Shown here piece after piece: positions 15,801 through 64,000 of a DNA stretch of 64,000 nt. The notes under the pieces were generated by a model. It was not told the DNA's origin and made no database searches. It was given only the letters and a program-made list of their open reading frames with translations. The translations under genes were made by a program, and so were the position numbers. This DNA comes from Eledone cirrhosa (Eukaryota). How positions within the stretch are numbered: position 1 is the stretch's first letter; every line of letters begins with the position of its first letter. The stretch is taken from NCBI GenBank assembly GCA_964016885.1, contig OZ024746.1:101804001-101868000 (forward strand), written 5' to 3'.

Positions 15801-18800
15801 ATTTTATTACCACCAACCTTCTATATTTTATTACCACCAACCCTCTATATTTTATTACCACTAATCCTCTATATTTTATTACCACTAACCTTCTATATTT
15901 TATTACCACCAACTCTCTATATTTTATTACCACCAACACTGTATACTTATTAACACTAACCCTTTATATTTTATTATCACCAACCCTCTATATTTTGTTA
16001 CCACTAACCCCCTATATTTTATTACCACTAACTCTCTATATTTTATTACCACCATCCTTCTATATTTTATTACCACCAACCTTCTATATTTTATTACCAC
16101 TAACCCTCTATATTTTATTATCTCTAACCTTCTATATTTTATTACCACCAACCTTCTATATTTTATTATCACCAACCCTTTGTATTTTATTACCACTAAC
16201 CCTCTATATTTTATTACCACTAACCTTCTATATTTTATTACCACCAACCCTCTATATTTTACTACCACCAACCTTCTATATTTTATTACCACCAACCTTC
16301 TATATTTTATTACCACCAACCCTCTATATTTTATTACCACCAACACTGTATACTTATTAACACTAACCCTTTATATTTTATTATCACCAACCCTCTATAT
16401 TTTGTTACCACTAACCCCCCTATATTTTATTACCACTAACTCTCTATATTTTATTACCACCAACCTTCTATATTTTATTACCACCAACCCTCTATATTTT
16501 ATTACCACCAACCCTCTATATTTTATTACCACTAACCTTCTATATTTTACTACCACCGACCTTCAATATTTTATTTCCACCAACCCTTTATATTTTATTA
16601 CCACCATCCTTCTATATTTTATTACCACTAACCCTCTATATTTTATTACCACTAACCTTCTATATTTTATTACCACCAACCTTCTTTTTTTTATTACCAC
16701 CAACCCTCTATATTTTATTACAACTAACCCTCTATATTTTATTATCCCTAACCTCCTATATTTTATTACCACCAACCTTCTATATTTTATTATCACCAAC
16801 CCTTTGTATTTTATTACCACCAACCTTCTATATTTTATTACCCCTAACCCTCTATATTTTATTACCACTAACCTTCTATATTATATTACCACTAACCCCC
16901 TATATTTTATTACCACTAACCTTCTATATTTTATTACCACTAACCTTCTATATTTTATTACCACTAACCTTCTATATTTTACCACCACTAACCTTCTATA
17001 TTTTATTACCCCTAACCCTCTATATTGTATTACCACTAACCTTCTATATTATATTACCACTAACCCTCTGTATTTTATTACCACCAACCTTCTATATTTT
17101 ATTACCACCAACCTTCTATATTTTATTACCACTAACCCTCTATATTTTATTACCACCAACCTTCTATATTTTATTACCCCTAACCCTCTATATTTTATTA
17201 CCACTAACCTTTTATATTTTATTACCACTAACCCTCTATATTATATTACCACTAACCCTCTATATTTTATTACCACCAACCCTCTATATTTTATTACCAC
17301 CAATCTTCTATATTTTATTACCACTAACCCTCTATATTTTATTACCCCTAACCTTCTATATTTTACTACCACCAACCTTCTATATTTTATTACCACTAAC
17401 CCTCTATATTTTATTACTACCACCCCTCTATATTTTATTACCACCAAACTTCTATATTTTATTACCACTAACCCTCTATATTTTATTACCACTAACCCTC
17501 TATATTTTATTACCACCAACCCTCTATATTTTATTAGCACCTACCCTCTATTTTATATTACCACCAACCCTCTATATTTTATTACCACTAACCCTCTATA
17601 TTTTATTACCACTAACTCTATATTTTATTACCACTAATCCTCTATATTTTATTACCACTAACCTTCTATATTTTATTACCACCAACCCTCTATATTTTAT
17701 TACCACCAACACTGTATACTTATTAACACTAACCCTTTATATTGTATTACCACCAACCCTCTATATTTTATTACCACTAACCCTCTATATTTTATTACCA
17801 CTAACCCTCTATATTTTATTACCACCAACCTTCTATATTTTACTACCACCAACCTTCTATATTTTATTACCACCAACCTTCTATATTTTATTACCACCAA
17901 CCTTCTATATTTTACTACCACCAACCTTCTATATTTTATTACCACCAACCTTCTATATTTTATTACCACCAACCTTCTATATTTTACTACCACCAACCTT
18001 ATATATTTTATTACCACCAACCTTCTATATTTTACTACCACCAACCTTCTATATTTTATTACCACCAACCTTCTATATTTTATTACCACCAACCTTCTAT
18101 ATTTTATTACCACCAACCTTCTATATTTTATTACCACCACCCCTCTTTATTTTATTACCACCAACACTGTGTACTTATTACCACCAACCTTCTATATTGT
18201 ATTACCACCAACCCTCTATATTTTATTACCACTAACCCTCTATATTTTATTATCACCAACCCTCTATATTTTATTACCACTAACCCTCTATATTGTATTA
18301 CCACCAACCCTCTATATTTTATTACCACTAACCTTCTATATTTTATTACCACCAAACTTCTATATTGTATTACCACCAACCCTCTATATTTTATTACCAC
18401 TAACCTTCTATATTTTACTACCACCAACCTTCAATATTTTATTACCACAAACCCTCTATATTTTATTACCACTAACCCCCTATATTTTATTACCACAAAC
18501 CCTCTATATTTTATTACCACTAACCCCCTATATTTTATTACCACTAACCCCCTATATTTTATTACCACTAACCTTCTATATTTTATTACCACTAACCTTC
18601 TATATTATATTATTACTAACCCTCTATATTTTATTACCACTAACCTTCTATATTTTATTACCACCACCCCTCTATATTTTATTACCACTAACCTTCTATC
18701 TTTTATTACCACCAACCCTCTGCATTTTATTACCACTAACCCTCTATATTTTATTACCACCAACCTTCTATATTTTATTACCACCAACCTTCTATATTTT

Positions 18801-18980
18801 ATTACCACTAACCTTCTATATTTTATTACCACCAACCTTCTATATTTTATTACCACTAACATTCTATATTTTATTACCACCAACCTTCTATATTATATTA
18901 CCACTAACATTCTATATTTTCTTACCACCAACCCTCTATATTTTATTACCACCAACCTTCTATATTTTATTACCACCAAC
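6860..18980. repeat. 24-bp satellite array (consensus TATTTTATTACCACYAACCYTCTA), about 12 kb
   Basis: Continuous tandem repeat. The ORF translations repeat every 8 aa (YFITTNPL), confirming the 24-bp period. Confidence 0.97.
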
Positions 18981-29601: not shown

Positions 29602-32239
29602 TAATTATCAATTACCGGTTTCAGCATTTTATGCATTATCGAATTATGTAAGTGGGAGAGAAAAAAAAGGGGGAATTTGTATTGGTATAAAATGTAGGAA
29701 AGAAGATAAGGTGATGTTGAACACGTTATTGTAATGAGAAAGAAAGAATAATATTATTTACAAACAAGGTTTTTGAAGTGAAAAAAAGGGGTGATGTGGA
29801 ACATAAGGTAATAGGAAAGAAAGAATAATATTATTTACAGGCATAGTTCTTGAGGATAAGCAGTTCAAAAAGTGTTATTATGGCAGGAGCGCTTGGAGGA
29901 GTTGATCCATGATGGTGGCAAAAATCTGCCTGGGAATGGATGTGTTTTCCCTTTTTAGAGAATTAATATGCAGGGAGAGGTAATTCTGGGTGCTCGGGTA
30001 TGAGAAAGGGAAGGGGTAATTCATTTATATAAGAAAAAGGATTAGGTAGGGTGTACAGGAGGTAACTCTTTAGAGAAAGGGATTTTGGACTTGGTTCATT
30101 GTTCGCTCCAGTTTTAGTTTAGTCCGAAGTTTAGTCCATTAAGTAGAGGTTGGAATTTGTTAATGAAGTACGTTTCCTTATTGGTACGATGGATGAAAGA
30201 AGCGGTGTCTATGAATTTGTAAATGGGGAAAATTCTAAAGTTTGGTTGTTGGTTAGGTGCACAATTGGCGATATGTTCACTAAAAGCAATCTTTCTGTAT
30301 TCCTGTATTTTGATTTGTGATCTATGGACGGTCATACATTGTCGGGGGCTGTTTTTTGTCTGTCTTATGTAGTGCTCTCGACAACCTGAGCAGGTCAAAA
30401 CATAGATTAGGTTTCCAGATGCACATCTAAAGTTGTATTTAACTGTGGAATGTTGTCCTTGTTTAAAGTGGAATGTTGAAACTTCTATTAGATTTATGCA
30501 TCTACCACAGTTGGGCCTTCAGCATTTTTTAACTGTAGGGTTCATTGTGAGGGTTAGTTGGATTTTGGCTTGTGTGGGGATATTTTTTGTGGATTTAGGT
30601 TGTCTTTTGCTCTTTATGATGTTGTGTGTTTGGAGGATTCTATTCATTCATGGGTTTCTCTTTAGTAAAGGAATGTTCTGGAGGATGGTGTCGAATGCCT
30701 CGTTGTTGAGGGGGGTTGTGTGTGGAGATGTATGGTAGAATTTTCTGTTTCGGTTCATTCCTAGGTTTGGGGTGTCTGAGATCCTGGATGTTGAGTTTTA
30801 GAGCACGTTGGAATCCATTGTTGATTAGGGATGGTGGGTAGTTTCTGCTAAGTGTGTTCTTTAATTCTTCTAGTCGTGTGTAGCATGTGTATTTATCTGA
30901 AACTATTGTGCAGATCCTTTTGGCTAGGTTATAAGGAATTGCCATTTTGGTATGGCAAGGGTGGCACGAGTTAAATGCAAGATATTGTTTGGAGTCTGTG
31001 GGTTTGTAGTATATGTCTGTTTCTATTTTGTTGTTTGTTTTCTTGATGAGGATGTCAAGGAAAGGGGGTTGTTCATGGCTGTATTCCATTGTAAATTGAA
31101 TGTTTTTGTGTTGAGTCCATTTAGAAGGGTTTTAAACTCAATCAGTATTTCTATACTTTCATGCCAGAGAATGAAGCAGTCGTCCAGATATCTCTTCCAG
31201 TTCTTTTCTGTGTAGGTAGCAGTGGTTACCGTATTTGTCTAGAACTTTGCGGTAGAGAGTAGTTTCCAAATATCCCATGACAAGGTTGGCGTATGAGGGG
31301 GCTACTTTCGTGCCCATGGCAGTCCCGGATTTCTGTCTGTAGTATTTGGCATCGAATTCGAAGAAGTTGTTTTCCAAGATGAATTTGAGGCCCTCCATCA
31401 CAAAGTCTTTAGGGATGCGTTGTGGAAGTTCACTAGGGAAATTTTCAAGCCAGAATTGTATTGCCTCTATACCTAGGTTGTGTGGGATATTGGAATATAG
31501 ATTGATGACATCAAAGGTTACTAGTAGGGTTTGTTCATTATTGAGCTTATGTATTTTAGGAAAAGTTTAAGCAGAATATCTAGGAAGTTGCTTAGGCGGT
31601 GGGTTTCACATGTGGTACCTGCTATTATGGGTCTTAATTTGAGGTCATCAGGAGGGAGGATATTAAATTGGTGATGTAGTTGTATTCCTTGTCGGTAAGG
31701 CCTTCTTTGTAAAGGGTTGTTAGGGATTTTAGGTTTCTCATGATTTTCTGTTGTGTGTAGTGTTGGGCCTTTTTGTAATATGTTTGGTTTTCTAGAGTTG
31801 ATAGTACTAGGGTCGTGTAGTAATCTGTCCTCATAAGGACTACTGCACTCCATTTATCCGCCTCTTTGATTGTTGGGCTCTCAATTTAAGGAGTTCAATT
31901 TCGGTTTTCATGTTATCAAGTGCCATTCTTTCCCTGAGGCGTCTTTGTGTCTCGGGTTCGTTTGGGATGGATTTAATTTGTAGTTTGCGGGGAAGGATTA
32001 ATGGGGATAAGTTAATCCATTTAATGGGTTAATCCATGATAATTCTTAAATAAATTAATTAATTAATAAATAAATCAATGCTATTGTTAATTAATAAATA
32101 AATTAACAAATACCTTAACACTTCACACAAAGTTAAATATTTTGTTTTAAACATTTTCTAACACAGAAAAAGAGAAAAAATAAAGGAAAAAAATATTTTT
32201 TCTTCCTAACAATCGTTTTTTTCTCTCCCTATTTACATA
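29403..32239 (-). mobile_element. Penelope-like element (frameshifted RT + GIY-YIG) with an inverted terminal copy
   Basis: RT motifs KLRPIIAG, YYRQKSGTAMGTKVAPSYANL, RYLDD and PFLD..YYKPTD. Cys-rich linker and GIY-YIG-like NLIYVLTCSGCREHYIRQT. 29403-29580 is inverted at 32065-32239, and both ends abut TA runs. Confidence 0.9.
29608..29647 (-). ncRNA. Variant minimal hammerhead in the PLE 3' UTR
   Basis: Minus strand: AAT-TCGATAA-TGCATAAAATGCT-GAAA-CCGG-TA-ATT. The core has U3/C4/A8 and stem III is palindromic. Confidence 0.45.
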
Positions 32240-32251
32240 TATATATATATA

Positions 32252-32449
32252 TAGGAACGAGTAGGACCCCGACGGCTGAGCTCAAGCCGTTTCAATGGAT
32301 AATTCTGGATTGAGTCCAGAATTAGCCGTCGAAACGGCTTGAGCTCAGCCGTCGAGGTCCTACTCGTTCCTATTACCCATTCTACTACCCTAAGTATTGA
32401 GTACTTTGGTGCGTTATGGTCCATCTGGTTCCTTACCACATTTCCTTCG

Positions 32450-32848: not shown

Positions 32849-33027
32849 GTATTTATTTTCTTGATTTATTCTTAAATTGAGTCTGGCAAACCCTATTGTC
32901 TATAGTTAGTATTCTTTTCACCTTAGCGAATCTGGTCCCTTACGATTTGAACTCATATATGTATATATCTGTGTTTATCTTTCTTTTATATTCAATTATA
33001 ATGATATAAATATATATATATAGTCTA

Positions 33028-33067
33028 ACAAAGTTCTTTCGTTGCACATCTGGAACATCATCAGTGG
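33028..33067 (-). ncRNA. Minimal hammerhead, PLE family B
   Basis: Minus strand: CCA-CTGATGA-TGTTCCAGATGTGCAAC-GAAA-GAAC-TT-TG. Confidence 0.6.
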
Positions 33068-34129
33068 TACTATTATCACGTTTCCACTGCTGTATTGTAG
33101 TGTCTACGCCATTTTTATTTTATCTATTTATTTATTTTTGTCCTCGTCTCTGCGCATGCGTTTGCGTGTGTGTATAGTGTTTGGTGTGTGTGTTCGCGTT
33201 TGGGTGACTGTGCTTTGGTTATTGTATTCTATCTTAGTTTATTAGTGTGTATTTATATGTGTTTGTTGTTATTGTACTTGTGTATATATTTATTTATTTA
33301 TTTATTTATATTTCTCTTAGGTCAGTGTTGTTTGTTTGGGTGTTGTTGTTATTCCATTCATATTTTTCTGTTTAGCTTTGGCTTTCTAAGCTCTATTTCG
33401 CTTGCTTCTCTGATTTGCCTATCTGCTGGGTCATTTCTATGTTTAGATATTATTTTAATTTCCATGTTGTCTATGTTACCGTCATGATGTTGTCTGGCGA
33501 GTTCGTATAGTACTGAACCGGTTTTTTTTTTTTGTCCTTTTAATTCCCCCCAATGTTGGTCTATTCTTTCTCCTATTCTTCGGGCTGTCTCGCCTATGTA
33601 TGTTGTTGTCATGTTTCTGCAAGTACCCTCTGTACATCTTATGCTATAGATTACATTTCTAGTTTTACAGTTTATCTGGGGATTTACTTTACATATAACA
33701 CATTTCCTATTAGTACAGTGGGTTTTCTTAAAAGAGTATGTTTTGCTGATCAGGGATTTTATGGTAGTTCCTGTCTTTTCTACCACTTTAATCTCTAAGT
33801 GGGTCTTTCTTAGGGCCTTTCTACATTGGTTAGCTAATTTCCCTCCATAATGGGCAAATTCCTTTCATGTCCAGTTCTATGAGGGTCTTATACTTCTCCG
33901 TGGCTCCTTTGTATACTCTGATTCTGTCTCTTTGGTTGTAACCGGAGAACTGCATGCGGTTGACTGTACCACAGAATATGAACCTGAAGATTGCGAAAGC
34001 ATGAAAGTACTTGTTCAATTAACACTTAACATTTAATATTCTACCATACTATTTCATTCTAATACCATTATACATTTTAAAGGATTGTAAATAAAACGAG
34101 TAAATCAGACAAAGTTGGAATTCCTTTTA

Positions 34130-34569: not shown

Positions 34570-37500
34570 ATTAGTATAGTGTTAACCTAATTGGTATAGA
34601 ATAGGTTAGTGTTAACCTAATTGGTATAGAATAGGTTAGTGTTAACCTAATTAGTATAGAATAGGTTAGTGTTAACCTAATTGGTATAGAATAGGTTAGT
34701 GTTAACCTAATTAGTATAGAATAGGTTAGTGTTAACCTAATTAGTATAGAATAGGTTAGTGTTAACCTAATTGGTATAGAATAGGTTAGTGTTAACCTAA
34801 TTAGTATAGAATAGGTTAGTGTTAACCTAATTGGTATAGAATAGGTTAGTGTTAACCTAATTGGTATAGAATAGGTTAGTGTTAACCTAATTGGTATAGA
34901 ATAGGTTAGTGTTAACCTAATTGGTATAGAATAGGTTAGTGTTAACCTAATTAGTATAGAATCAGTTGGTGTTAACCTAATTATTATATAATTAGTTGGT
35001 GTTAACCTAATTAGTATAGAATAGCTTAGTGTTAGCCTAATTGGTATAGAATAGGTTAGTGTTAACCTAATTAGTATAGAATAGGTTAGTGTTAACCTAA
35101 TTAGTATAGAATAGGTAGTGTTAACCTAATTAGTATAGAATAGGTTAGTGTTAACCTAATTAGTATAGAATAGGTTAGTGTTAACCTAATTAGTATAGAA
35201 TAGGTTAGTGTTAACCTAATTGGCATAGAATAGGTAGTGTTAACCTAATTAGTATAGAATAGGTTAGTGTTAACCTAATTGGTATAGAATAGGTAATGTT
35301 AACCTAATTAGTATAGAATAGGTAGTGTTAACCTAATTAGTATAGAATAGGTTAGTGTTAACCTAATTAGTATAGAATAGGTTAGTGTTAACCTAATTGG
35401 TATAGAATAGGTAGTGTTAACCTAATTAGTATAGAATAGGTTAGTGTTAACCTAATTAGTATAGAATAGGTTAGTGTTAACCTAATTGGTATAGAATAAG
35501 TTAGTGTTAAACTAATTAGTATAGAATAGGTTAGTGTTAACCTAATTAGTATAGAATAGGTTAGTGTTAACCTAATTAGTATAGAATTAGTTGGTGTTAA
35601 CCTAATTAGTATAGAATAGGTTAGTGTTAACCTAATTAGTATAGAATAGGTTAGTGTTAACCTAATTAGTAAAGAATAGGTTAGTGTTAACCTAATTAGT
35701 ATAGAATTAGTTGCTGTTAACCTAATTAGTATAGAATAGGTTAGTGTTAACCTAATTAGTATATAATTAGTTGCTATTAACCTAATTAGTATAGAATTAG
35801 TTGGTGTTAACCTAATTAGTATAGAATAGGTTAGAGTTAACCTAATTAGTATAAAATAGGTTAGTGTTAACCTAATTAGTATAGAATTAGTTGATGTTAA
35901 CCTAATTAGTATAGAATTAGTTGTTGTTAACCTAATTAGTATAGAATAGATTAGTGTTAACCTAATTAGTATAGAATAGGTTAGTGTTAATTAGTATAGA
36001 ATTAGTTGCTGTTAACCTATTTAGTATAGAATAGATTCGTGTTAACCTAATTAGTATAGAATAGGTTAGTGTTAACCTAATTGGTATAGAATAGGTTAGT
36101 GTTAACCTAATTAGTATAGAATAGGTAGTGTTAACCTATTTAGTATAGAATAGGTTAGTGTTAACCTAATTGGTATAGAATAGGTTAGTGTTAACCTATT
36201 TAGTATAGAATAGATTAGTGTTAACCTAATTGGTATAGAATAGGTTAGTGTTAACCTAATTAGTATAGAATAGGTTAGTGTTAACCTAATTGGTATAGAA
36301 TAGGTTAGTGTTAACCTAATTGGTATAGAATAGGTTAGTGTTAACCTAATTAGTATAGAATCAGTTGGTGTTAACCTAATTAGTATATAATTAGTTGGTG
36401 TTAACCTAATTAGTATAGAATAGCTTAGTGTTAGCCTAATTGGTATAGAATAGGTTAGTGTTAACCTAATTAGTATAGAATAGGTTAGTGTTAACCTAAT
36501 TAGTATAGAATAGGTAGTGTTAACCTAATTAGTATAGAATAGGTTAGTGTTAACCTAATTAGTATAGAATAGGTTAGTGTTAACCTAATTAGTGTAGAAT
36601 AGGTTAGTGTTAACCTAATTGGTATAGAATAGGTAGTGTTAACCTAATTAGTATAGAATAGGTTAGTGTTAACCTAATTGGTATAGAATAGGTAGTGTTA
36701 ACCTAATTAGTATAGAATAGGTAGTGTTAACCTAATTAGTATAGAATAGGTTAGTGTTAACCTAATTAGTATAGAATAGGTTAGTGTTAACCTAATTGGT
36801 ATAGAATAGGTAGTGTTAACCTAATTAGTATAGAATTAGTTGCTGTTAACCTAATTAGTATAGAATAGGTTAGTGTTAACCTACAAAGTGTTAGAATCAG
36901 TTGCTGTTAACCTAATTAGTATAGAATTAGTTGGTGTTAACCTAATTAGTATAGAATAGGTTAGTGTTAACCTAATTAGTATAGAATAGGTTAGTGTTAA
37001 CCTAATTAGTAAAGAATAGGTTAGTGTTAACCTAATTAGTATAGAATTAGTTGCTGTTAACCTAATTAGTATAGAATAGGTTAGTGTTAACCTAATTAGT
37101 ATATAATTAGTTGCTATTAACCTAATTAGTATAGAATTAGTTGGTGTTAACCTAATTAGTATAGAATAGGTTAGAGTTAACCTAATTAGTATAAAATAGG
37201 TTAGTGTTAACCTAATTAGTATAGAATTAGTTGATGTTAACCTAATTAGTATAGAATTAGTTGTTGTTAACCTAATTAGTATAGAATAGATTAGTGTTAA
37301 CCTAATTAGTATAGAATAGGTTAGTGTTAACCTAATTGGTATAGAATAGGTTAGTGTTAACCTAATTGGTATAGAATAGGTTAGTGTTAACCTATTTAGT
37401 ATAGAATAGGTTAGTGTTAACCTAATTGGTATAGAATAGGTTAGTGTTAACCTATTTAGTATAGAATAGATTAGTGTTAACCTAATTAGTATAGAATTAG

Positions 37501-38017
37501 TTGATGTTAACCTAATTAGTATAGAATAGGTTAGAGTTAACCTAATTAGTATAGAATAGGTTAGTGTTAATTAGTATAGAATTAGTTGCTGTTAACCTAT
37601 TTAGTATAGAATAGATTAGTGTTAACCTAATTAGTATAGAATTAGTTGGTGTTAACCTAATTAGTATAGAATAGGTTAGTGTTAACCTAATTAGTATAGA
37701 ATAGGTTAGTGTTAACCTAATTAGTATAGAATAGGTTAGTGTTAACCTACAAAGTGTTAGAATCAGTTGCTGTTAACCTAATTAGTAGAGAATTAGTTGG
37801 TGTTAACCTAATTAGTATATAATAGGTAAGAGTTAACCTAATTAGTATAGAATAGGTAGTGTTAACCTAATTAGTATAGAATTAGTTGCTGTTAACCTAA
37901 TTAGTATAGAATCAGTTGGTGTTAACCTAATTAGTATAGAAACAGTTGCTGTTAACCTAATTAGTATAGAATTAGTTGGTGTTAACCTAATTAGTATAGA
38001 ATAGGTTAGTGTTAACA
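34570..38017. repeat. 30-bp satellite array (GTTAACCTAATTAGTATAGAATAGGTTAGT)
   Basis: About 115 tandem copies; two units per 60-base line. Confidence 0.97.
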
Positions 38018-47763: not shown

Positions 47764-47866
<103 letters not shown>

Positions 47867-48012
47867 GAAGAGAGAAGAAACATTTAGATATAATTAGTAA
47901 TAAGATGTATCATACCTAAACTGCTTCTAGATTCCTCGACTACGTAGTTTCGTGGCATAAACAAAAACAATACATCATATAGATATAGAGCCTTTGCGAG
48001 GGTTTCTCAATA

Positions 48013-48058
<46 letters not shown>

Positions 48059-48105
48059 GACGTAAATAAGAAAGTTATGAAAATTGACTTGCTTACTAAA
48101 ATTTC

Positions 48106-48184
48106 ACTCCAACTAATTAGTTTCTGTAAGGGGATAAATATAGTTACGTAATAACTATAGAGAAGCCTTACGTCATCAGGAAGT
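48106..48184 (-). ncRNA. Minimal type I hammerhead
   Basis: Reverse-complement copy of 49208-49286. Confidence 0.7.
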
Positions 48185-48628
48185 CTATTCTCAGCAAAGC
48201 TTCCAGGCAATGCGGGGACACTGGGAACTTATATAAAAATAATTCAGTGGATGGAAAAAAGCGAGCGGGGCTAGATTCCAGGTCACTGAAAAATTCACTG
48301 CCTTCTTGGTCAAGTGGCAAATTCAAAAGAATCAATCACGTGACACTGAGGTTAACCAGCTTGGAGTGGGGGTGCAATTAAGACAGAGCCTAGCCACTAC
48401 TATCAGTCACAGTAGTAATTTCGGCAAATTTTGCTCAACAAATAATTTGGAGATAATTATAAAGAATTAATATATCTACCGACATATGTATACAGATGCA
48501 TACCTATGCTAGCAAATATATATGTTTTGTCTTAGTAACTTTGTGATTCTATGCAGGGGGATGCAGAACAATTATATGAAAGACGTAAATAAGAAAGTTA
48601 TGAAAATTGACTTACTTACTAAAATTTC

Positions 48629-48707
48629 ACTCCAACTAATTAGTTTCTCTAAGGGGATAAATATAGTTACGTAATAACTATAGAGAAGCCTTACGTCATC
48701 AGGGAGT
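48629..48707 (-). ncRNA. Minimal type I hammerhead
   Basis: Reverse-complement copy of 49731-49809. Confidence 0.7.
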
Positions 48708-49207
48708 CTATTTTCAGCAAAACTTCCAGGCAATGCGGGGACACTGGGAACTTATATAAAAATAATTCAGTGGATGGAAAAAAGCGAGCGGGGCTAGATT
48801 CCAGGACACTGAAAAATTCACTGCCTTCTTGGTCAAGTGGCAAATTCAAAAGAATCAATCACGTGACACTGAGGTTAACCAGCTTGGAGTGGGGGTGCTA
48901 TTAAGACAGAGCCTAGCCACTACTATCAGTCACAGTAGTAATTTCGGCAAATTTTGCTCAACAAATAATTTGGAGATATTATAAAGAATTAATATATCTA
49001 CCGACATATGTATACAGATGCATACCTATGCTAGCAAATATATATGTGTCACGTGATTGATTCTTTTGAATTTGCCACTTGACCAAGAAGGCAGTGAATT
49101 TTTCAGTGTCCTGGAATCTAGCCCCGCTCGCTTTTTTCCATCCACTGAATTATTTTTATATAAGTTCCCAGTGTCCCCGCATTGCCTGGAAGCTTAGCTG
49201 AGTATAG

Positions 49208-49286
49208 ACTCCCTGATGACGTAAGGCTTCTCTATAGTCATTACGTAACTATATTTATCCCCTTACAGAAACTAATTAGTTGGAGT
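49208..49286 (+). ncRNA. Minimal type I hammerhead
   Basis: ACTCC-CTGATGA-CGTAAGG...CCTTACA-GAAA-CTAATTAG-TT-GGAGT; palindromic stem III. Confidence 0.75.
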
Positions 49287-49730
49287 GAAATTTTAGTAAG
49301 TAAGTCAATTTTCATAACTTTCTTATTTACGTCTTTCATATAATTGTTCTGCATCCCCCTGCATAGAACCACAAAGTTACTAAGACAAAACATATATATT
49401 TGCTAGCATAGGTATGCATCTGTATACATATGTCGGTAGATATATTAATTCTTTATAATTATCTCCAAATTATTTGTTGAGCAAAATTTGCCGAAATTAC
49501 TACTGTGACTGATAGTAGTGGCTAGGCTCTGTCTTAATAGCACCCCCACTCCAAGCTGGTTAACCTCAGTGTCACGTGATTGATTCTTTTGAATTTGCCA
49601 CTTGACCAAGAAGGCAGTGAATTTTTCAGTGTCCTGGAATCTAGCCACGCTCGCTTTTTTCCATCCACTGAATTATTTTTATATAAGTTCCCAGTGTCCC
49701 CGCATTGCCTGGAAGCTTTGCTGAGAATAG

Positions 49731-49809
49731 ACTCCCTGATGACGTAAGGCTTCTCTATAGTTATTACGTAACTATATTTATCCCCTTAGAGAAACTAATT
49801 AGTTGGAGT
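49731..49809 (+). ncRNA. Minimal type I hammerhead
   Basis: ACTCC-CTGATGA-CGTAAGG...CCTTAGA-GAAA-CTAATTAG-TT-GGAGT. Confidence 0.7.
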
Positions 49810-49973
49810 GAAATTTTAGTAAGTAAGTCAATTTTCATAACTTTCTTATTTACGTCTTTTATATAATTGTTCTGCATCCCCCTGCATAGAACCACAAAGT
49901 TACTAAGACAAAACATATATATTTGCTAGCATAGGTATGCATCTGTATACATATGTCGGTAGATATATTAATT

Positions 49974-50036
<63 letters not shown>

Positions 50037-50046
50037 AACCAGTAAG

Positions 50047-50140
50047 ACCCCGACAGCTGAGCTCAAGCCGTTTCGACGGCTAATTCTGGACTAAATGAAA
50101 ATTTATCCTGGTATTTAAATAGCCGATCTTCTCAAGGGGT
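50047..50140 (-). ncRNA. Hammerhead, U3-A8 variant (mirror copy)
   Basis: Reverse complement of 51426-51519. Confidence 0.65.
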
Positions 50141-51425
50141 AATTCCATATATGGTCAAAGTGATTGTCAAAAATCAGTAGTAATTCTGTGGTTGCAAATT
50201 AGTAGGGGAGATGGTGGCTAAACCTGCCAGTAGGAGAAAGAGGGGAGGGGGTGGAGTAGACCCAATCAAGCGTTGGTAGTGCCAGCTACAGCTGGGCATG
50301 AGGTCAAAGAAGATACAGGGGAGGGGGAGGGGGAGGAAGTCGGAACGGTAGGTAGAACAATGGGGGGTAGAAATATATAGGAAAGAAAAAATACTGAGAG
50401 TGAAGAAAAGCAAATAAGTGTAAAGAAAAAAGTAAAGTAAATTAAATTCTACGACCTAGGTCTCAGGCTATTGTTAGGCTAGAATAAAATAAAGAAAGAA
50501 AGAAAGAAGTAAAGAAATAAATAAATAAAGAAATAACGAAATAAGTAAAAGAACTAGGTGGGACGGAATAGGCAAAACCCTTTTAAGAGGTATAAGTACG
50601 TAAATGATACGGTGACGGGTCAACAAAAGGGGCCAAAATACTAAAGAGACTACCACGAAATAAACAATAAAGGTTTCCATCCCGGGCCAGCAACGACCCA
50701 GTGCAGCGAAGTGAACTTGTACGAGATAATAATTCTGAGTCCCGAGAAAAATATATACTAATGCTAACTCTAAAAGAAGTTAGAGTTAGCATTTAGAGTT
50801 AGCATTAGTATATATTTTTCTCGGGACTCAGAATTATTGTCTCGTACAAGTTCACTTCGCTGCACTGGGTCGTTGCTGGCCCGGGATGGAAACCTTTATT
50901 GTTTATTTCGTGGTAGTCTCTTTAGTATTTTGGCCCCTTTTGTTGACCCGTCACCGTATCATTTACGTACTTATACCTCTTAAAAGGGTTTTGCCTATTC
51001 CGTCCCACCTAGTTCTTTTACTTATTTCGTTATTTCTTTATTTATTTATTTATTTACTTCTTTCTTTCTTTATTTATTTTATTCTAGCCTAACAATAGCC
51101 TGAGACCTAGGTCGTAGAATTTAATTTACTTTACCTTTTTCTTTACACTTATTTGCTTTTCTTCACTCTCAGTATTTTTTCTTTCCTATATATTTCTACC
51201 CCCCATTGTTCTACCTACCGTTCCGACTTCCTCCCCCTCCCCCTCCCCTGTATCTTCTTTGACCTCATGCCCAGCTGTAGCTGGCACTACCAACGCTTGA
51301 TTGGGTCTACTCCACCCCCTCCCCTCTTTCTCCTACTGGCAGGTTTAGCCACCATCTCCCCTACTAATTTGCAACCACAGAATTACTACTGATTTTTGAC
51401 AATCACTTTGACCATATATGGAATT

Positions 51426-51519
51426 ACCCCTTGAGAAGATCGGCTATTTAAATACCAGGATAAATTTTCATTTAGTCCAGAATTAGCCGTCGAAACGGCT
51501 TGAGCTCAGCTGTCGGGGT
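51426..51519 (+). ncRNA. Hammerhead, U3-A8 variant (family A)
   Basis: ACCCC-TTGAGAA-GATCGGCTA...TAGCCGTC-GAAA-CGGC-TTGAGCTCA-GCTG-TC-GGGGT. Confidence 0.65.
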
Positions 51520-51610
51520 CTTACTGGTTCCTATTACCCACTCTACTACCTCAAGTATTGAGTACTTTGGTGCGTTATGGTCCACCTGGTTCCTTACCAC
51601 ATTTCCTTCG

Positions 51611-51644
<34 letters not shown>

Positions 51645-51854: not shown

Positions 51855-52674
51855 CTAAGGCAGGTAACATTCCCGAGATCCATGGACGAGTTCTCTCCAG
51901 CGGTCTCTGTCCCTCATTATCGCTGCCATGTCCTGCGTCTCCAACAGACCAGTGTCTGTCCTTAGGGCATCAACATACGTTAACCTTGGTCTTCCTCTTC
52001 TAGTGTGTCCATGTAGGGGCTCCCAAAGGAGCACTGAGTGCAATGTCAACTCTGGATGTCGGTGAGCATGTCCAGCTAACCTCAGTCTCCTCTGTGTCAC
52101 TTATGAGCTGAGTTTTGGGATGCTCCCATACAGCTCTGAGATTTTCATCCTCAGTGTATACTGTAGCACCGGCTCAGAGCAGGAGAGTTAGGGCGAAAAA
52201 GGTATCGGATGCTAAATTTGCCGACGACATAGTTTTGGTGACAAATACAGTGAAGGAGGCAGAGGATTTGATGCGGGAGGTTGAGACTGTGTCGATGAGT
52301 GTGGGGCTGAGAATGAATGAGACTAAAACAAAATATCTGGTAGAGAATGTTGAGAAGCCAGAGGGGATCACAAATGTAGGCGGGAAGCCGCTAGAATTGG
52401 TTGAGGGCTTCCTTTATTTGGGCGCAAAGATTGGGAATACGGAAGATGTTGTGGTTCAGAGGAAGGGCAAGGCCTGGGTGGCATGCCACAGCTTGAGATC
52501 GGTGTGGAAGTCGGACCTTCGTAGAGACCTAAAAATCCGCATCTTCATTGCTGTAGTGGAGTCTGTACTGCTGTATGGGTCTGAGACTTGGACACTGACC
52601 AAGAAACTCACTCAGATGGTGGATGGGTGCTACACGAGAATGCTGAGGATGGCTCTGAACATTAATCAGTATAC
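51855..52674 (-). mobile_element. RTE-like LINE insertion with 5' inversion
   Basis: The + segment encodes FADDIVL..FLYLGA..LLYGSETWTLT..RMLRMALN; the - segment encodes RRLRLAGH..RRGRPRLTYVD..RDRW. 11-bp TSD ATTGGCAACAT (51844-51854, 52675-52685). Confidence 0.9.
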
Positions 52675-52766
52675 ATTGGCAACATGACCCTCCCAAAGTA
52701 TAACAATATCGGTTTCAACACACGTTTTCAGATAAAGAATCTTGCTAAACAAATTCAGAAACGAAA

Positions 52767-52837: not shown

Positions 52838-54307
52838 ATACTTTGGGAGTGTCATATTGCCAATAAGAAACACACGCACCAGTTGTTTCATTTCAATTTA
52901 TTATAATAAATTTATAAATTTAGGAATTTATAAATTTCCGGTTGGTTGGTTGGTTGGTTCCACAACCAGATGATTGTTCATATATTGTCAAAGTTCTTTC
53001 GTCACACATTCTGTGACCTCTTCAGTGACTGGGGATTCTTTTCTTTGTTTTTTGTGCCTCTCCTTTGTTCTGTCCTACGCCATCTTGTTTTTGTGTGTGT
53101 TGTGTGCTTAGTTTGCGCATGTGTTACATCCGGGTGCCTGTGTGTGTTTATATTTGTTTATTTATTTGTTTATTTACATGTTACTGGTTGGTTGTTTGTT
53201 CTATGTGTGTGTGTGTTTTCATTTTGTCCTTAATTGTAAGTTGTGATGTTGCTGTTCCATTCATGTTTTCTATTTAATTTTGGTTGGAGTTCATTTATGT
53301 TTATTGCCTCTGTGATTTGTCTAAACATTGCGTCTTTTCTGTGTGTAGATTCTATTTTTATTTCTATGTTCTCTAATTTACCCTTATGTTATATTTTAGC
53401 ATGTTGGTAGAGTACAGATGATTCTTTACTATCTTGAAGCTCTTGCCAGTGTTCATTTATCCGTTCCCCTATACTACGAGCTGTCTCACCTATGTACACT
53501 ATATTCTTATCTCTACATTGTCCTTCAGTACATCTTATGCTATATACTACATTTCTAGTTTTACAGTTAATATTGAGGCTTAATTTACAGATTATACATT
53601 TCTTATCTATACAGGGAAGTCTTTGAAAAGGGTATGTATTGCTTATAAGTGTTTTTATGGAGGTACCTGGTCTTTCTACTATCTTAATATTGAGTTTATG
53701 TTTATCTAGGGCCCTTCTAAATTTGTAAGCTAATTCACCTCTAGGGGTTGTATCGATGAACATTACACTCTGGTATTTATTGCTATCATACCATGAGTTT
53801 ATTCTATTAACCTTATTCCTAGTTCTTTCTATTCTATTCCAAAATTTGCTCCTATACAAGGAGCAGGTCCCATTTGTGTCATTATTTACCATTTTTTTCC
53901 ATTTGGTTCTGGCTCCTCTATATACTCTGATTTTATCTCTCTGATTGTAACCAGAGAACTGCATACGGTGGATGAAGTATTGTATGTGTCTCTCTAGTTC
54001 TTTGGGGTTGCACATGCGGGACACGTTTCTCATCACCCGTACCAAATCCGCAATCACTGTGTTGATTTTGGTATGGTCCGAAACAGCTGAGTTTCGGTGG
54101 ATCAGATATTTGGAAGTCATGGGTTTGGCATAATGGGAATGGAGGATTTGTTTTTTGTTATTAATGGTATCTAACCAGAGCTCTGTGTATAGTACAGGTA
54201 ATCGATGGTTGGGGTGTCTGCTTGGGTAGTCTATAGTAACTCTAATACTCTGGTGGATGGAGTTAGCTATTTGCTGGATGCTTTCCATGGTGTTTTTCTC
54301 TAATCCT
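52824..54307 (-). mobile_element. Penelope-like element family C: RT thumb + Cys linker + GIY-YIG, 5'-truncated
   Basis: ORF 53389-54339 contains LPVLYTELW..HYAKPM..CIDKKCIIC..NVVYSIRC..YIGETARSIGERINEH. The 3' UTR carries a hammerhead and ends at (TA)n. Confidence 0.92.
52987..53029 (-). ncRNA. Minimal hammerhead, PLE family C
   Basis: Reverse complement of 51710-51752. Confidence 0.72.
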
Positions 54308-56006
54308 GGATGTGTCTTTCCATTTCTGTTGGGTCGCACATGCGGGACACGTTCTTCATCACTCGTACCAAGTCTGCGATCAGAATATTAAACTTAGCAC
54401 TACTGGACATTGCTGAGTTTTTGAGTATCAGGTATTTGGAGGCCATGGGTTTATCATAGTGTGAGTGGAAAATTTGGGCTCTCTCGTCTATAGTGTTAAT
54501 CCAGAGTTCCGTGTCTATAGACGAGAGAGCCCAAATTCTCCACTCACACTATGCTAAACCTATGGCCTCCAAATACCTGATACTCAAAAACTCAGCAATG
54601 TCCAGTAGTGCTAAGTTTAATATTCTGATCGCAGACTTGGTACGAGTGATGAAGAACGTGTCCCGCATGTGCGACCCAACAGAAATGGAAAGACACATCC
54701 AACACTTCATCAACCGCATGCAGTTCTCTGGCTACAACCAAAGAGACAGAATCAGAGTATACGAAGGAGCCACGGAGAAAAGACCCTCATAGAACTGGAC
54801 ATGAAAGGAATTTGCCCATTATACAGGAGCAAATCATGGAATAGCTTAGATAGGGCTAGACATAAACCCTCATGGTACGACAACCAGAGATACCAGAGTG
54901 TCATGTTTGTGGACGCTACCCCTGGAGGGAAATTAGCTAACCAGTGTAGAAAGGCCCTGAGAAAGACCCACTTAAAGATTAAGGTGGTAGAAAAGCCAGG
55001 AACCACCATAAAATCCCTGATCAGCAAAACCTACCCTTTTAAGAAAACCCACTGTACTAATAGGAAATGTATCATATGTAAAGTAAACCCCCGGATAAAC
55101 TGTAAAACTAGAAACGTAGTCTATAGCATAAGATGTACAGAGGGTACTTGCAGAAACATGACAACAACATACATAGGCGAGACAGCTCGTAGCATAGGTG
55201 AAAGGATAGACCAACACTGGGGGGAACTAAAAGGACGAAAAAACGGTTCAGTACTATACGAACATGCCAGACAACAACCCGACGGTAACATAGATAACAT
55301 AGAAATTAGAATAATATGTAAACATAGAAATGACCCAGCAGATAGGCAAATCAGAGAGGCCAGCGAAATAGAACTTAGAAGGCCAAGGCTAAACAGAAAA
55401 AATGAATGGAATAACAACAACACCCAAACAAACAACACTGACCTAAGAGAAGTATAAATAAATAAATAAATAAATAAATAGATAAATAAATAAATACATA
55501 TACAAGCACAATAACAACAAACACATATAAACACAGACTAGTAAAGATAGAATACATTAACCAATACACAGTCACTCAAACACGAACACACATCAAACAA
55601 AACACTATACACACACGCAAACGCATGCGCAAAGAAGACAAAAAAATAAACAAATAAATAAATATATAAACAGACGAAATAAAGATGGCGTAGACATACC
55701 ATGCAACGGGAGGAAACAATAGCACCACTGACGATGTTGCAGATGTGCAACGAAAGAACTTTGATAGACTATATATATGTGTTTGTGTCTATATTGTATC
55801 TGTATTTTTGACCGTTGGTCAGTCAATGGCAACATTGAGGACCGAATAAATTAAATTAACCTATATAAAAGACACAGAAGCGAAAACCAACCAAACAGTG
55901 AGTGTGTTCTGTTATTAATTCAGGCAATATTACACAAATATAACCCTCCTCAAGTATAACAATATTTGTTTCAACACACGATTTCATATAAAAAACCTCG
56001 CAAAAC
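54308..56006 (+). mobile_element. Penelope-like element family B with 5' inversion
   Basis: ORFs 54493-54792 and 54669-55457 (frameshifted) contain HYAKPMASKYLI..CTNRKCIIC..NVVYSIRC..YIGETAR. 54308-54493 is an inverted copy of 54515-54700. Ends at (TA)n. Confidence 0.92.
55725..55764 (+). ncRNA. Minimal hammerhead, PLE family B
   Basis: CCA-CTGACGA-TGTTGCAGATGTGCAAC-GAAA-GAAC-TT-TG; weak stem I. Confidence 0.6.
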
Positions 56007-57454: not shown

Positions 57455-58587
<1,133 letters not shown>

Positions 58588-59510: not shown

Positions 59511-60019
59511 TATATTTATACATTTTTTCTATGTATGAACTTACGTGTATGTGTATATATATATTTGTCTTTACATGTAAGTGATTATTTATATATATTT
59601 TTGTGCGTACGGTCTTTTTATGTTTATACATATATGTTTTTATATACTTATATATTTATTACATGTGTGTGTATATATATATATGTGTGTGTATGTGTAT
59701 CTGTATATATATTTTTGTGAATGTATGTGACCATATAATATGGGCGTACGCATATATGTATGTGCATATAATTCATAATTACGAAGTTTTGCGGGATCAT
59801 TGTGTGTGTATATATATATTTTATGTAAGTGTATGTAAATGTATAAGTGTAATTCCGTATTTGTATGTGTATTTATATATATGTATATATACATGTATGT
59901 ATATGTATGTATATGTATGTATATATATATATATGTCGCGTCACTCTTGAGTGCTACTGGTAACATGTAACCTAGTACAACATGTCGCATGGTCGGATGT
60001 ATTTTATCATTAAACCATA

Positions 60020-62927
60020 ATTACCACTTTACAGAGTGTACTGGGTGGATGTTATCATGACACCAACACTAACACTTTACAGAATGTACTGGATGTATTT
60101 TATCATGGTCCCAGCACTACCACTTTACAGAGTGTACTGGGTGGATTCTATCATGGCACCAACACTTTACAGAGTGTACTGGATGTATTTTATCATGACA
60201 CCAGCACTACCACTTTACAGAGTGTACTGGGTGGATTCTATCATGGCACCAACACTTTACAGAGTGTACTGGGTGGATTCTATCATGGCACCAACACTTT
60301 ACAGAGTGTACTGGGTGGATTCTATCATGGCACCAACACTTTACAGAGTGTACTGGGTGTATTTAATCATGGCACCAACACTACCACTTTACAGAGTGTA
60401 GTGGGTGTGTTTTATCATGACACCAACACTACCCCTTTACAGAGTGTACTGAATGCATTCTAACATGGCACCATCACTACCAATTTACAGAGTGTACTGG
60501 GTGTATTTTATCATGGAACCAGCACTAACACCTTACAGAGTGTACTGGGTGTATTTTATCATAACACCAGCACTACCACTTTACAGATTGTACTTGGTGT
60601 ATTTTATCATGACAGCAGCACTACCACTTTACAGAGTGTACTGGGTGTATCTTATCATGACACCAGCACTACCACTTTACAGAGTGTACAGAGTACATTC
60701 TATCATGGCACCAACACTTTACAGAGTGGACTGGGTGTATTTTATCATGGTACCAGCACTATCACTTTACAGAGTGTACTTGGTGTATTTTATGATGACA
60801 CCAACACTACCAATTTACAGAGTGTACTTGGTGTATTTTATCATGACACCAGCACTGCCACTTTACAGAGTATACTGGGTGTAATTTATCATGACATCAA
60901 CACAACCACATTACAGAGTGTACTTTGTGTATTTTATCATGACACCAACACTACCACTTTACAGAGTGTACTTGGTGTATTTTGTCATGACACCAAAACT
61001 ACAGCTTTACAGAGTGTACTGGGTGCATTTTACCATGACACCAACACTACCACATTACAGAGTTGATTTGGTGTATTTTATCATGACACCAACACTACCA
61101 CTTTACAGAGTGTACTGGGTGCATTCTATCAAGGCCCTCAGCACTACCACTTTACAGAGTGGACTGGGTGTATTTTATCATGGCACCAACACTACCACTT
61201 TACAGAGTGTACTGGGTGTATATTATCATGACACCAACACTACCACTTTACAGAGTCTACTGGGTGTATTATATCATGACACCAGCACTACCACTTTACA
61301 GAGTGTACTGGATGTATTTTATCATGGCACCAAAACTACCACCTGAACAGAGTGTACAGGGTGTATTTTATCATGGCACCAGCACTACCACTATACAGTG
61401 TGTACTGGGTGTATTTTATCATGACACCAACACCACCACTTTAAAGAGTGTACTGGGTGTATTTTATCATGGCACCAACACTACCACTTTACAGAGTGTA
61501 CTGGGTGTATTTTATCATGACACCAGCACTACCACTTTACAGAGTGGACTGGGTGTATTTTATCATGACACCAGCACTACCACTTTACAGAATGAACTGG
61601 GTGTATTATATCATGACACCAGCACTACCACTTTACAGAGTGTACTGGGTGTATTTTAACATGGCACCAGCACTACCAATTTATAGGGTGTACTGGGTGT
61701 ATTCTATCATGACACCAGCACTACCACTTTACAGAGTGTACTGGATGTATTTTATCATGGCACCAGCACTACCATTTTACAGAGTGTACTGGGTGTATTT
61801 TATCATGGCACCAACACTACCACTTTACAGTGTGTACTGGGTGTATTTTATCATGGCACCAACACTACCATTTTACAGAGTGGACTGGGTGTATTTTATC
61901 ATGGCACCAACACTACCACTTTACAGAGTGTACTGGGTGTATTTTATCATGGCACCAACACTACCACTTTACAGAGTGTACTGGGTGTATTTTATCATGG
62001 CACCAACACTACCACTTTACAGAGTGTACTGGGTGTATTTTATCATGGCACCAACACTACCACTTTACAGAGTGTACTGGGTGTATTTTATCATGGCACC
62101 AACACTACCACTTTACAGAGTGTATTGGGTGTATTTTATCATGGCACCAACACTACCACTTTACAGAGTGTATTGGGTGTATTTTATCATGGCACCAACA
62201 CTACCCCTTTACAGAGTGTATTGGGTGTATTTTATCATGGCACCAACACTACCCCTTTACAGAGTGTATTGGGTGTATTTTATCATGGCACCAACACTAC
62301 CCCTTTACAGAGTGTATTGGGTGTATTTTATCATGGCACCAACATTACCACTTTACAGAGTGTACTGGGTGTATTTTATCATGGCACCAACACTACCACT
62401 TTACAGAGTGTATTGGGTGTATTTTATCATGGCACCAACACTACCACTTTACAGAGTGTATTGGGTGTATTTTATCATGGCACCAACACTACCCCTTTAC
62501 AGAGTGTATTGGGTGTATTTTATCATGGCACCAACACTACCCCTTTACAGAGTGTATTGGGTGTATTTTATCATGGCACCAACACTACCCCTTTACAGAG
62601 TGTATTGGGTGTATTTTATCATGGCACCAACATTACCACTTTACAGAGTGTACTGGGTGTATTTTATCATGGCACCAACACTACCACTTTACAGAGTGTA
62701 TTGGGTGTATTTTATCATGGCACCAACACTACCACTTTACAGAGTGTATTGGGTGTATTTTATCATGGCAGCAACACTACCCCTTTACAGAGTGTATTGG
62801 GTGTATTTTATCATGGCACCAACACTACCACTTTACAGAGTGTACTGAGTGTATTTTATCATGGCACCAACACTACCCCTTTACAGAGTGTACTGGGTGT
62901 ATTTTATCATGGCACCAACATTACCAC
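60020..62927. repeat. 48-bp minisatellite array (ACAGAGTGTACTGGGTGTATTTTATCATGGCACCAACACTACCACTTT)
   Basis: About 60 copies; 16-aa periodicity in the ORF track; some 42-bp variants at the 5' side. Confidence 0.96.
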
Positions 62928-64000
62928 TCATTGTATCCTCATCTAGACTGGGAAATGACATGAGTGCAGGAGATAGCGATATACATGTTGCTTGCTGAGA
63001 AGTGGTCTTAAAGAGAGTGACATCTTATAGTACTGGTATGGCTGGACCAGGGACCGAGAATGTGGGAGGGAGAGTACGTGTTGTGATCTTCAAGAAAGGG
63101 AGTGAATGATCAACATTTGGCAATACATTGCAAAGTTGCATCTGTGCTTCCATAGTTACATGAGTTGGCTGGGGGAAATAGGGGGTTCGGTAGGTGGAGG
63201 TTAGCTAGTGAGTGAGGTACCTTTCTGCTTCTACCATGCTTCCAATGTGTGTTTCATCCTGATCATGTTGGAACATAAATCACCAGTCATCTTCATAAGG
63301 TTAACCTTTACCATATCATTCCAATTCTACCTCTTCCACATCATCCATCATATGTATCACATATCCATAGCAACAGTTTTTCTATATTCGGTGCATCTAG
63401 TCCTCTCTTATACTCAGTTTTTCTATTTGATAGTTCATCTTTTACGTACACTGCTATTGCACATCCATGGAAACATGTCTCATTTCTTTCCAAACTTCAC
63501 TGATCTTCTGCATTCAAGGCCCCTCACTTTCATACAACATCACAATTTTTACTCAGGTATCATACAATCTGCTTATCTTCATGAGAGAGGAGCTTTTTCC
63601 ACCTGATTCTCCCTCTATGACATTCATCAATTTGAGGTGACAATAGAAAGCATTTGCCATAAAGGACCAAACCTGAAACCATGATTATAAAAGAAATTAT
63701 TGAAAACTGAAAATTTCTTTCATAAAAACTTATGTGTATTTTATTGATTTTACTTTTTAAAAACAAAACAAAAAGATCATCTTTTATTTGGAATGTTTTA
63801 TTAAATACAAATCATAGAAATAAAAAGAAAAAAAGTTTTTGTATCTTACACATCCAAACTCATTCATTTTCTGTGTTTTTATTGAGTCCACGAATTGATA
63901 AATCATAAACTATTTCTTCAATCTTTTTCAAGTCATATTTCAAAACATCATATCGTTTGCGTAAAGAATCATTTTTCAAATTTAACAACCTAAATCCAGC

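Follow-up and report, generated by a model that had tools for sequence, protein, structure and literature searches.

A non-coding hammerhead repeat with two fixed insertion ends in Eledone cirrhosa, probably mobilised by a Penelope-like element enzyme

Here we describe a non-coding repeat with a 523-bp unit and a hammerhead ribozyme in each unit, located at 48,016-50,034 of a 64,000-nucleotide stretch of the Eledone cirrhosa genome (assembly GCA_964016885.1, contig OZ024746.1, 101,804,001 to 101,868,000; hereafter the window). Throughout the family, the arms of an insertion end at two fixed sites in (TA)n, and the explanation that we find probable is that a Penelope-like element (PLE) enzyme, likely of the Hydra clade, primes reverse transcription on either side of a single DNA break, with a circularised monomer RNA as the probable template. 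Judged from its DNA, the unit works like a PLE and also shows the DNA-level traits of a non-LTR (long terminal repeat) retrozyme. Both the mode of movement of animal retrozymes and the cause of the inverted copies and the one-sided tail of PLE insertions have been called open in the published texts that were accessible. The family described here ties a retrozyme to the PLE machinery through its insertion footprint and names a candidate clade.

Two Fixed Outer Ends

In the 3.0-Gb genome, 65 insertions were mapped, 38 taken by similarity rank and 27 in genome order (two of the latter resemble one duplicated segment); duplicate loci that overlap were excluded, as was a divergent neighbouring arm in the locus L031. 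Ends were classified with windows of +-6 and -12/+4 nt, plus a motif rescue for divergent subfamilies. These insertions comprise 116 arms, whose outer end falls at a site A in 48 cases, at a site B, 115 nt from A, in 54, and elsewhere in 14. A (TA)n tract lies within 60 nt of 97 of the 102 A or B ends. Head-to-head insertions account for 46 of the 65; 36 of them join an A end to a B end, none joins A to A or B to B, and ten have one unclassified end, so that every classifiable two-armed insertion (36/36) is of the A+B type. The 92 inner ends are uniformly distributed over the unit (Kolmogorov-Smirnov p=0.20), and the arms overlap by 1-13 nt at 28 of the 46 head-to-head junctions.

Both outer ends correspond to RNA 3' ends, as expected if the two strands of a (TA)n break prime cDNA synthesis. 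The insertion pattern is that of the PLE footprint, an inverted 5'-truncated copy with a one-ended tail. Such a one-sided tail and inverted truncated copy have been described for PLE insertions (PMC8557442), and in vitro the tail corresponds to two start sites of the reverse transcriptase (RT) (PMC11167929). Furthermore, coding PLEs of the same genome, namely a Neptune-type family and a Hydra-clade family, obey the same two-end rule. In the Neptune-type family the ends lie about 190 and about 250 nt past its hammerhead, about 60 nt apart, and the target is again (TA)n.

The initial annotation had noticed that the two arms at the locus begin at different phases of the unit, and had read this as circular permutation, fitting reverse transcription of a circular RNA by a PLE enzyme in trans. 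The phase difference is real, but it is not random: the outer ends sit at two fixed sites and only the inner ends vary, as random 5' truncations, so the phase difference alone is no pointer to a circle. Instead of copies with permuted endpoints, which had been expected in the genome, the mapped insertions have 102 of their 116 arms ending at one of the two sites, and random circular permutation of the end points was rejected for them. Mobilisation in trans is itself supported by the PLE-type footprint, and a circular template is plausible on other grounds, since arms cross the cleavage site and repeat the variants of one monomer.

Architecture of the Locus

The 523-bp period is present on both arms, with a repeat identity of 98%, so the initial description of one unit in two inverted arms between (TA)n flanks stands. 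Phase 1 of the unit is set at 49047 on the + strand, which is the hammerhead-sense strand. The locus is composed as follows.

48016..48054: (TA)n target, left flank
48050..49047, - strand: arm 1 (1.91 units), running from phase 344 at its 5' end to site A (phase 296) at its RNA-sense 3' end
49046..49047: head-to-head junction of the arms, 2-nt microhomology
49046..49980, + strand: arm 2 (1.79 units), running from phase 523/1 at its 5' end to site B (phase 411) at its 3' end
49048..49186, + strand: promoter-like stretch, with GTCACGTGA at phase 2, TATATAAG at phase 111 and GCATTGCC at phase 133, conserved across subfamilies
49866..49980, + strand: 115-nt 'tail' (phases 297-411), only at the B end
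49977..50034: (TA)n target, right flank
49197..49297, + strand: type I hammerhead, CTGATGA core from +49213, intact; predicted cleavage after 49281
49720..49820, + strand: type I hammerhead, core from +49736, C>G breaking the stem II closing pair; predicted cleavage after 49804
48618..48718, - strand: type I hammerhead, core from -48702, C>G breaking the stem II closing pair; predicted cleavage after 48634
48095..48195, - strand: type I hammerhead, core from -48179, intact, C>T in stem I; predicted cleavage after 48111

The promoter function of 49048..49186 is suggested by its motifs, which we take to be an E-box, a TATA element and an initiator (Inr). The longest stop-to-stop frame of the circularised unit codes for 75 amino acids, in agreement with the non-coding, retrozyme-like character first attributed to it.

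The Hammerhead Ribozyme

The four cores listed above bear out the initial view of one hammerhead per unit with a palindromic stem III, which sits inside the 12-nt palindrome AACTAATTAGTT. The ribozyme is not the minimal one that had been proposed: helix III has 3 bp and an AAUU loop, helix I is extended, the helix II region spans 46 nt with an internal loop, and an extra C and an extra A flank stem II, one nucleotide per side. The minimal PLE hammerhead, with helix III absent or minimal and a short helix I (Cervera 2014, PMC4209133), is not matched either, although an extra nucleotide 5' of stem II is common to both.

An Rfam scan gave no hammerhead match at the gathering threshold and, at E<=5, seven weak matches, all to unrelated families. 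The core is nevertheless near-invariant among about 140-150 unit copies, and in 36 aligned hammerheads 92% of the cells pair. Covariation is seen in stem II, where 40 cells changed on both sides, all in its two helices, versus 10 in shuffles (0/500 shuffles reach this value), in a test whose shuffle control is inflated by relatedness, in which two of five measures are not above the shuffles, and in which two of the 36 rows are truncated copies.

In the predicted fold of the monomer, the core is paired with stem III, i.e., the form is inactive. When two hammerheads are cofolded through the palindrome, the energy is -53.0 kcal/mol, versus -44.7 for two monomers, and the core is freed. The hammerhead is predicted from this folding to be active only as a dimer, which lends support to the dimer-type cleavage suggested at first; the predicted cleavage site is a GUU. 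That dimer dependence protects monomer circles is an established idea (PMC4209133).

The Template: Circle or Linear Multimer

In the cut monomer, site A is 61 nt and site B 176 nt away from the 5' end, and with their hairpins, described below, both fall within 61-200 nt downstream of the cut. The arms run through the cleavage site, many of them exceeding one unit, and reach 2.9 units, or 3.7 in a divergent subfamily. Because both start sites are close to its 5' end, a linear monomer produced by cleavage cannot serve as the template of such arms. Template jumps between linear monomers were also considered and rejected, since they should make inner ends pile up at the cleavage site and no such excess is seen (5 of 92 versus 3.7 expected, p=0.31).

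Tandem units diverge by about 1-7% within arms and about equally between arms, and their differences are rarely common to insertions: 982 of 1,074 arm pairs share none, against 991 in a reversed control. Over 8,863 sites with at least three copies, we counted 412 singletons and 125 subfamily alleles present in all copies, besides 11 private alleles found in every copy of both arms and 12 fixed in one arm; at 23 sites, a rare allele thus recurs in every turn of the whole insertion or of a single arm. Subset alleles number 12 across arms and 4 within an arm. Most of these allele data fit the reiteration of one monomer, sometimes with a separate molecule for each arm, and we lean slightly towards a circular RNA as the template, as far as DNA permits such a reading.

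The rival that survives best keeps the same PLE-mobilised element and replaces the circle by an uncut linear multimer, transcribed from young or homogenised arrays, with template switching restoring the length. We judge it unlikely, but several points weigh against the circle and most of them favour the multimer. The only PLE reconstituted in vitro needed no hammerhead cleavage and mainly used uncut, unprocessed RNA as its template (PMC11167929); other retrozymes form long arrays, up to 62-mers (PMC7229834); and the monomer of our unit is predicted to fold inactively. Moreover, the two arms share same-turn rare alleles at five four-copy sites in four insertions, versus one opposite-turn case, a pattern that a linear dimer template or gene conversion would be expected to leave. 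The stem II closing pair is broken in two of the four locus hammerheads, where 144 of 150 copies have a C, so the locus copy may be a poor source; cleavage of the RNA is here a prediction, and the circle a deduction from DNA. What speaks against the multimer is that the longest arm seen in the loci examined has 3.7 units, while single insertions total up to 5.35 units; that unit differences are not inherited across insertions; that rare alleles run through all turns at the 23 sites mentioned; and that the hammerhead is conserved, with covariation, over subfamilies 72-98% alike.

Scars of RNA editing found no support in the variants: insertion-fixed A>G changes affect 21 of 147 A sites and T>C changes 20 of 187 T sites, and unit-private changes are strand-symmetric. 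As a separate observation, variants fixed in single insertions lean towards A>G and T>C (18 versus 8 for G>A and C>T; small numbers), and unit-private mutations lean the opposite way (102 versus 139).

Start-Site Hairpins and the Enzyme Partner

A bulged hairpin lies just 3' of each start site.

49346..49369, + strand: bulged hairpin 3' of site A; further copies at 49869-49892 (+) and 48546-48569 (-); in 49/58 monomers
49462..49482, + strand: bulged hairpin 3' of site B, of the CTCCA...TGTTGAG type; further copies at 48433-48453 (-) and 48956-48976 (-); in 51/58 monomers

Hairpin B, CTCCAAAT...TTGTTGAG, is located 7 nt past site B. Hairpin A, 6 nt past site A, is built like it: UC, 4 bp, a loop, a 2-nt bulge and GA. 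The hairpin descriptor has only two strict matches on the unit circle, one per site, and a single match elsewhere among the 58 monomers.

A second hammerhead family, found by surveying loci, has at least 46,428 pattern matches and 42,444 first-look RT candidates. Its ends lie about 48 and about 140 nt past its cut site, leaving a tail of about 90 nt, and its long copies code for a PLE with a C-terminal endonuclease (EN), RWR and DKT motifs, a CNCRNKSNC linker and no CCHH. These are features of the Hydra clade (Craig et al. 2021, PMC8557442); the assignment is drawn from motifs, as Pfam recognised none of five ORF (open reading frame) pieces. In five copies read across the 5' region, a CTCC...TGYYGAG hairpin is present a few bases past each of the two ends (of the ten hairpins, two were identified by eye and eight by regular expression). 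The unit and the Hydra-clade elements therefore share a cis signal at their RT start sites, as judged with a post hoc descriptor and one negative-control family, and a PLE of this clade is likely to be the enzyme partner of the unit. Besides, near full-length Hydra-clade copies with both 5' and 3' hammerheads were observed (L204:357-4033; L202; L206), in what is a very large expansion of the clade.

Some data count against this partnership. The unit has no extended homology to Hydra or other coding PLEs in the loci compared, with only 20-58 nt AT-rich matches to coding Hydra elements in 35 loci. The descriptor was written after the hairpins had been seen, so that its shuffle rate of 0.002 per 8-nt window is no independent test, and the negative control consists of one other PLE family only. 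Hairpin A is like the Hydra hairpins only in its shape, the upper stem of the second Hydra hairpin is weak, and the tail of the unit measures 115 nt versus about 90 nt in the Hydra elements.

That a PLE of another clade mobilises the unit, for instance the abundant Neptune-type family of the window, the likeness of the hairpins being convergent or vestigial, is improbable in our view. Besides the missing long homology, it would be favoured by the (TA)n target and the two fixed ends of Neptune-type PLEs, and by the many more PLE families that the genome holds beyond those compared. Nevertheless, the hairpin is present in none of 16 long ends of the Neptune-type family, whereas hairpin B agrees with the Hydra hairpins both in sequence and in its spacing from the end, and is kept in most monomers.

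Abundance and Coding Status

A DNA search of the genome returned 3,406 candidates, and scores were computed for 40 of them. The exact hammerhead 18-mer occurs 9,628 times genome-wide and a control 18-mer not at all; likewise, there are 2,312 exact junctions of A with (TA)n and 1,177 of B with (TA)n. Monomers measured from cleavage to cleavage are 506-571 nt long and all non-coding (n=58; three from overlapping loci). The unit presents tandem non-coding repeats with one type I hammerhead each, a conserved core and covarying stems, as well as no LTR, no ORF, a GC content below 50% and many dispersed copies, all of them DNA-level marks of a retrozyme (no scan for a primer-binding site or polypurine tract was made).

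Regarding an attached ORF, whose linkage the initial annotation had proposed to check, tblastn of six PLE fragments from the window against 80 loci found none contiguous with the unit, nor did blastn of the unit against coding PLE loci (30 Neptune-type, 30 GIY-YIG and 35 Hydra). With its longest frame of 75 amino acids, the unit does not carry the ORF with RT and GIY-YIG endonuclease of an autonomous PLE. We hold it very probable that it is a non-autonomous element mobilised by a PLE.

The possibility that the unit is a satellite-like remnant, produced by local DNA amplification of an ordinary pseudo-LTR (pLTR) belonging to a coding PLE, appears very improbable and is largely refuted in our sample. 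Local tandem amplification of pLTRs has been proposed (2026 preprint 10.64898/2026.07.22.740005), and PLE ORF fragments occur near some unit copies; however, (TA)n or other DNA lies between them and the unit, same-strand hammerheads are spaced by 522-571 nt where tandem units form (first 100 matches), with none of the 58 monomers coding, and the copies are dispersed insertions with RT-type ends. That the inverted arrangement is an assembly artefact is scarcely credible: the region is repeat-rich, and contigs from two runs of one sample show the family and none spans the locus, but the two arms differ from each other at 1.5% of sites and do not end at the same fixed site, and 36 insertions, whose junctions differ, follow the A+B rule.

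Proposed Mechanism

The explanation that we favour would proceed in five steps. Tandem copies would be transcribed, likely from the internal promoter-like stretch. Two hammerheads are then predicted to pair through the 12-nt palindrome, cut and release a monomer of about 523 nt, which would be ligated to a circle, protected by the inactive fold of a lone hammerhead. In turn, as the shared signal suggests, an RT-endonuclease dimer would sit on the two bulged hairpins and cut both (TA)n strands, each DNA 3' end annealing to a short UAUA and starting 6-7 nt upstream of one hairpin. The outcome is what the DNA shows: one arm starts at A and the other at B, their inner ends fall at random phases, and a microhomology of 1-5 nt joins most of them.

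A wider reading, offered tentatively and with rather less confidence, is that of a two-hairpin RNA code in Hydra PLEs and their retrozyme parasites. Each RT-endonuclease subunit would dock on one hairpin and prime a few bases upstream, the tail being the spacing between the hairpins. Since the two sites follow closely after the hammerhead cut, the template would be a ribozyme-made circle, read round by two RTs with the hammerhead off in the monomer, and a 523-nt non-coding circle with both hairpins would suffice for mobilisation. The unit supplies two short RNA signals with exact start sites, and a single small RNA together with one protein would be enough to test both the question of circle versus multimer and the origin of the tail. 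If true, this would also define a minimal cis element for insertion at (TA)n from an RNA template.

Comparison With Known Systems

Metazoan non-LTR retrozymes (Cervera and de la Pena 2020, PMC7229834; Li, Clavereau and Pollet 2026, preprint 10.64898/2026.07.22.740005) are alike in having tandem non-coding units with one type I hammerhead each, a low GC content, thousands of copies, dimer-type cleavage and a PLE as the proposed mobiliser. The unit described here is larger than the RNAs tested in PMC7229834 (506-571 versus about 170-400 nt) and falls within the consensus range of the preprint (51-972), and its hammerhead is oversized, unlike theirs. Our insertions are two-armed, head-to-head and have two fixed ends, and the word 'inverted' is absent from the accessible text of PMC7229834. 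The link between retrozymes and PLEs consists of co-occurrence and pLTR homology in published work, and of an integration footprint and a shared hairpin here. Circular RNAs have been demonstrated for published metazoan retrozymes, whereas the present unit is known from its DNA.

Among PLEs, the EN+ Hydra-clade elements (Craig et al. 2021, PMC8557442) share partial tandems, an inverted 5'-truncated copy, a one-ended tail, a (TA)n target and a hammerhead in the repeat. They differ in that our unit has no ORF and a tail of 115 nt, versus 30-40 bp in that work, the accessible part of which does not describe end hairpins for them. Non-autonomous Chlamys elements such as MRC1 (PMC8557442) are likewise derived from PLEs and non-coding; they have pLTRs and insert as several head-to-tail copies. 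Their 3' sequence is common to them and autonomous families, and most of them have no hammerhead. Our unit does have one, and a small hairpin is all that it shares.

In vitro, the PAc Poseidon element (Frangieh et al. 2024, PMC11167929) also has two internal RT starts that define the tail, cuts and extends both strands, uses an AT-rich target and encodes a protein predicted to be a dimer. It is, however, autonomous, and cleavage is dispensable there. Its start sites are adjacent, lie in one AC-rich stem loop and are not homologous to the target, whereas those of our unit are 115 nt apart, have a hairpin each and each end in TATA matching the target. The literature searched, mostly openly accessible texts without preprint supplements, yielded no account of retrozyme insertions with two arms, nor of hairpins at the ends.

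Neighbouring Elements in the Window

Directly beside the locus, at 50032-51612, there is a second PLE-type inverted insertion, a 1.5-kb palindrome (98.7%) between (TA)n runs, with a tail of about 78 nt on the right arm only and related ends at 32297, 41907 and 42621; a motif scan found no canonical hammerhead in it. On the other side, a short fragment of repeated sequence lies at 47864-48015 between (TA)n runs; its - strand bears the palindromic motif GAAAC-TACGTA-GTC, which resembles stem III, and has no CTGANGA upstream of that motif. Another long-stem-II hammerhead, with its core at -58086, belongs to a tandem of period 468 at 57824-58527.

Broken coding PLE copies, with RT, Zn-finger linker and GIY-YIG, are located at 53243-55457, 33008-33864 and 30114-31853; for one of these families, 37,194 first-look candidates were counted genome-wide, and its two fixed ends are separated by 60 nt. 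A fragment of a non-LTR reverse transcriptase, presumably RTE-like, is nested between PLE ends at 52112-52687, with RVT_1 and DUF6451 below the cut-off. Finally, large minisatellite arrays with periods of 24, 30 and 48 occupy 6875-18980, 34577-38016 and 59998-62928.
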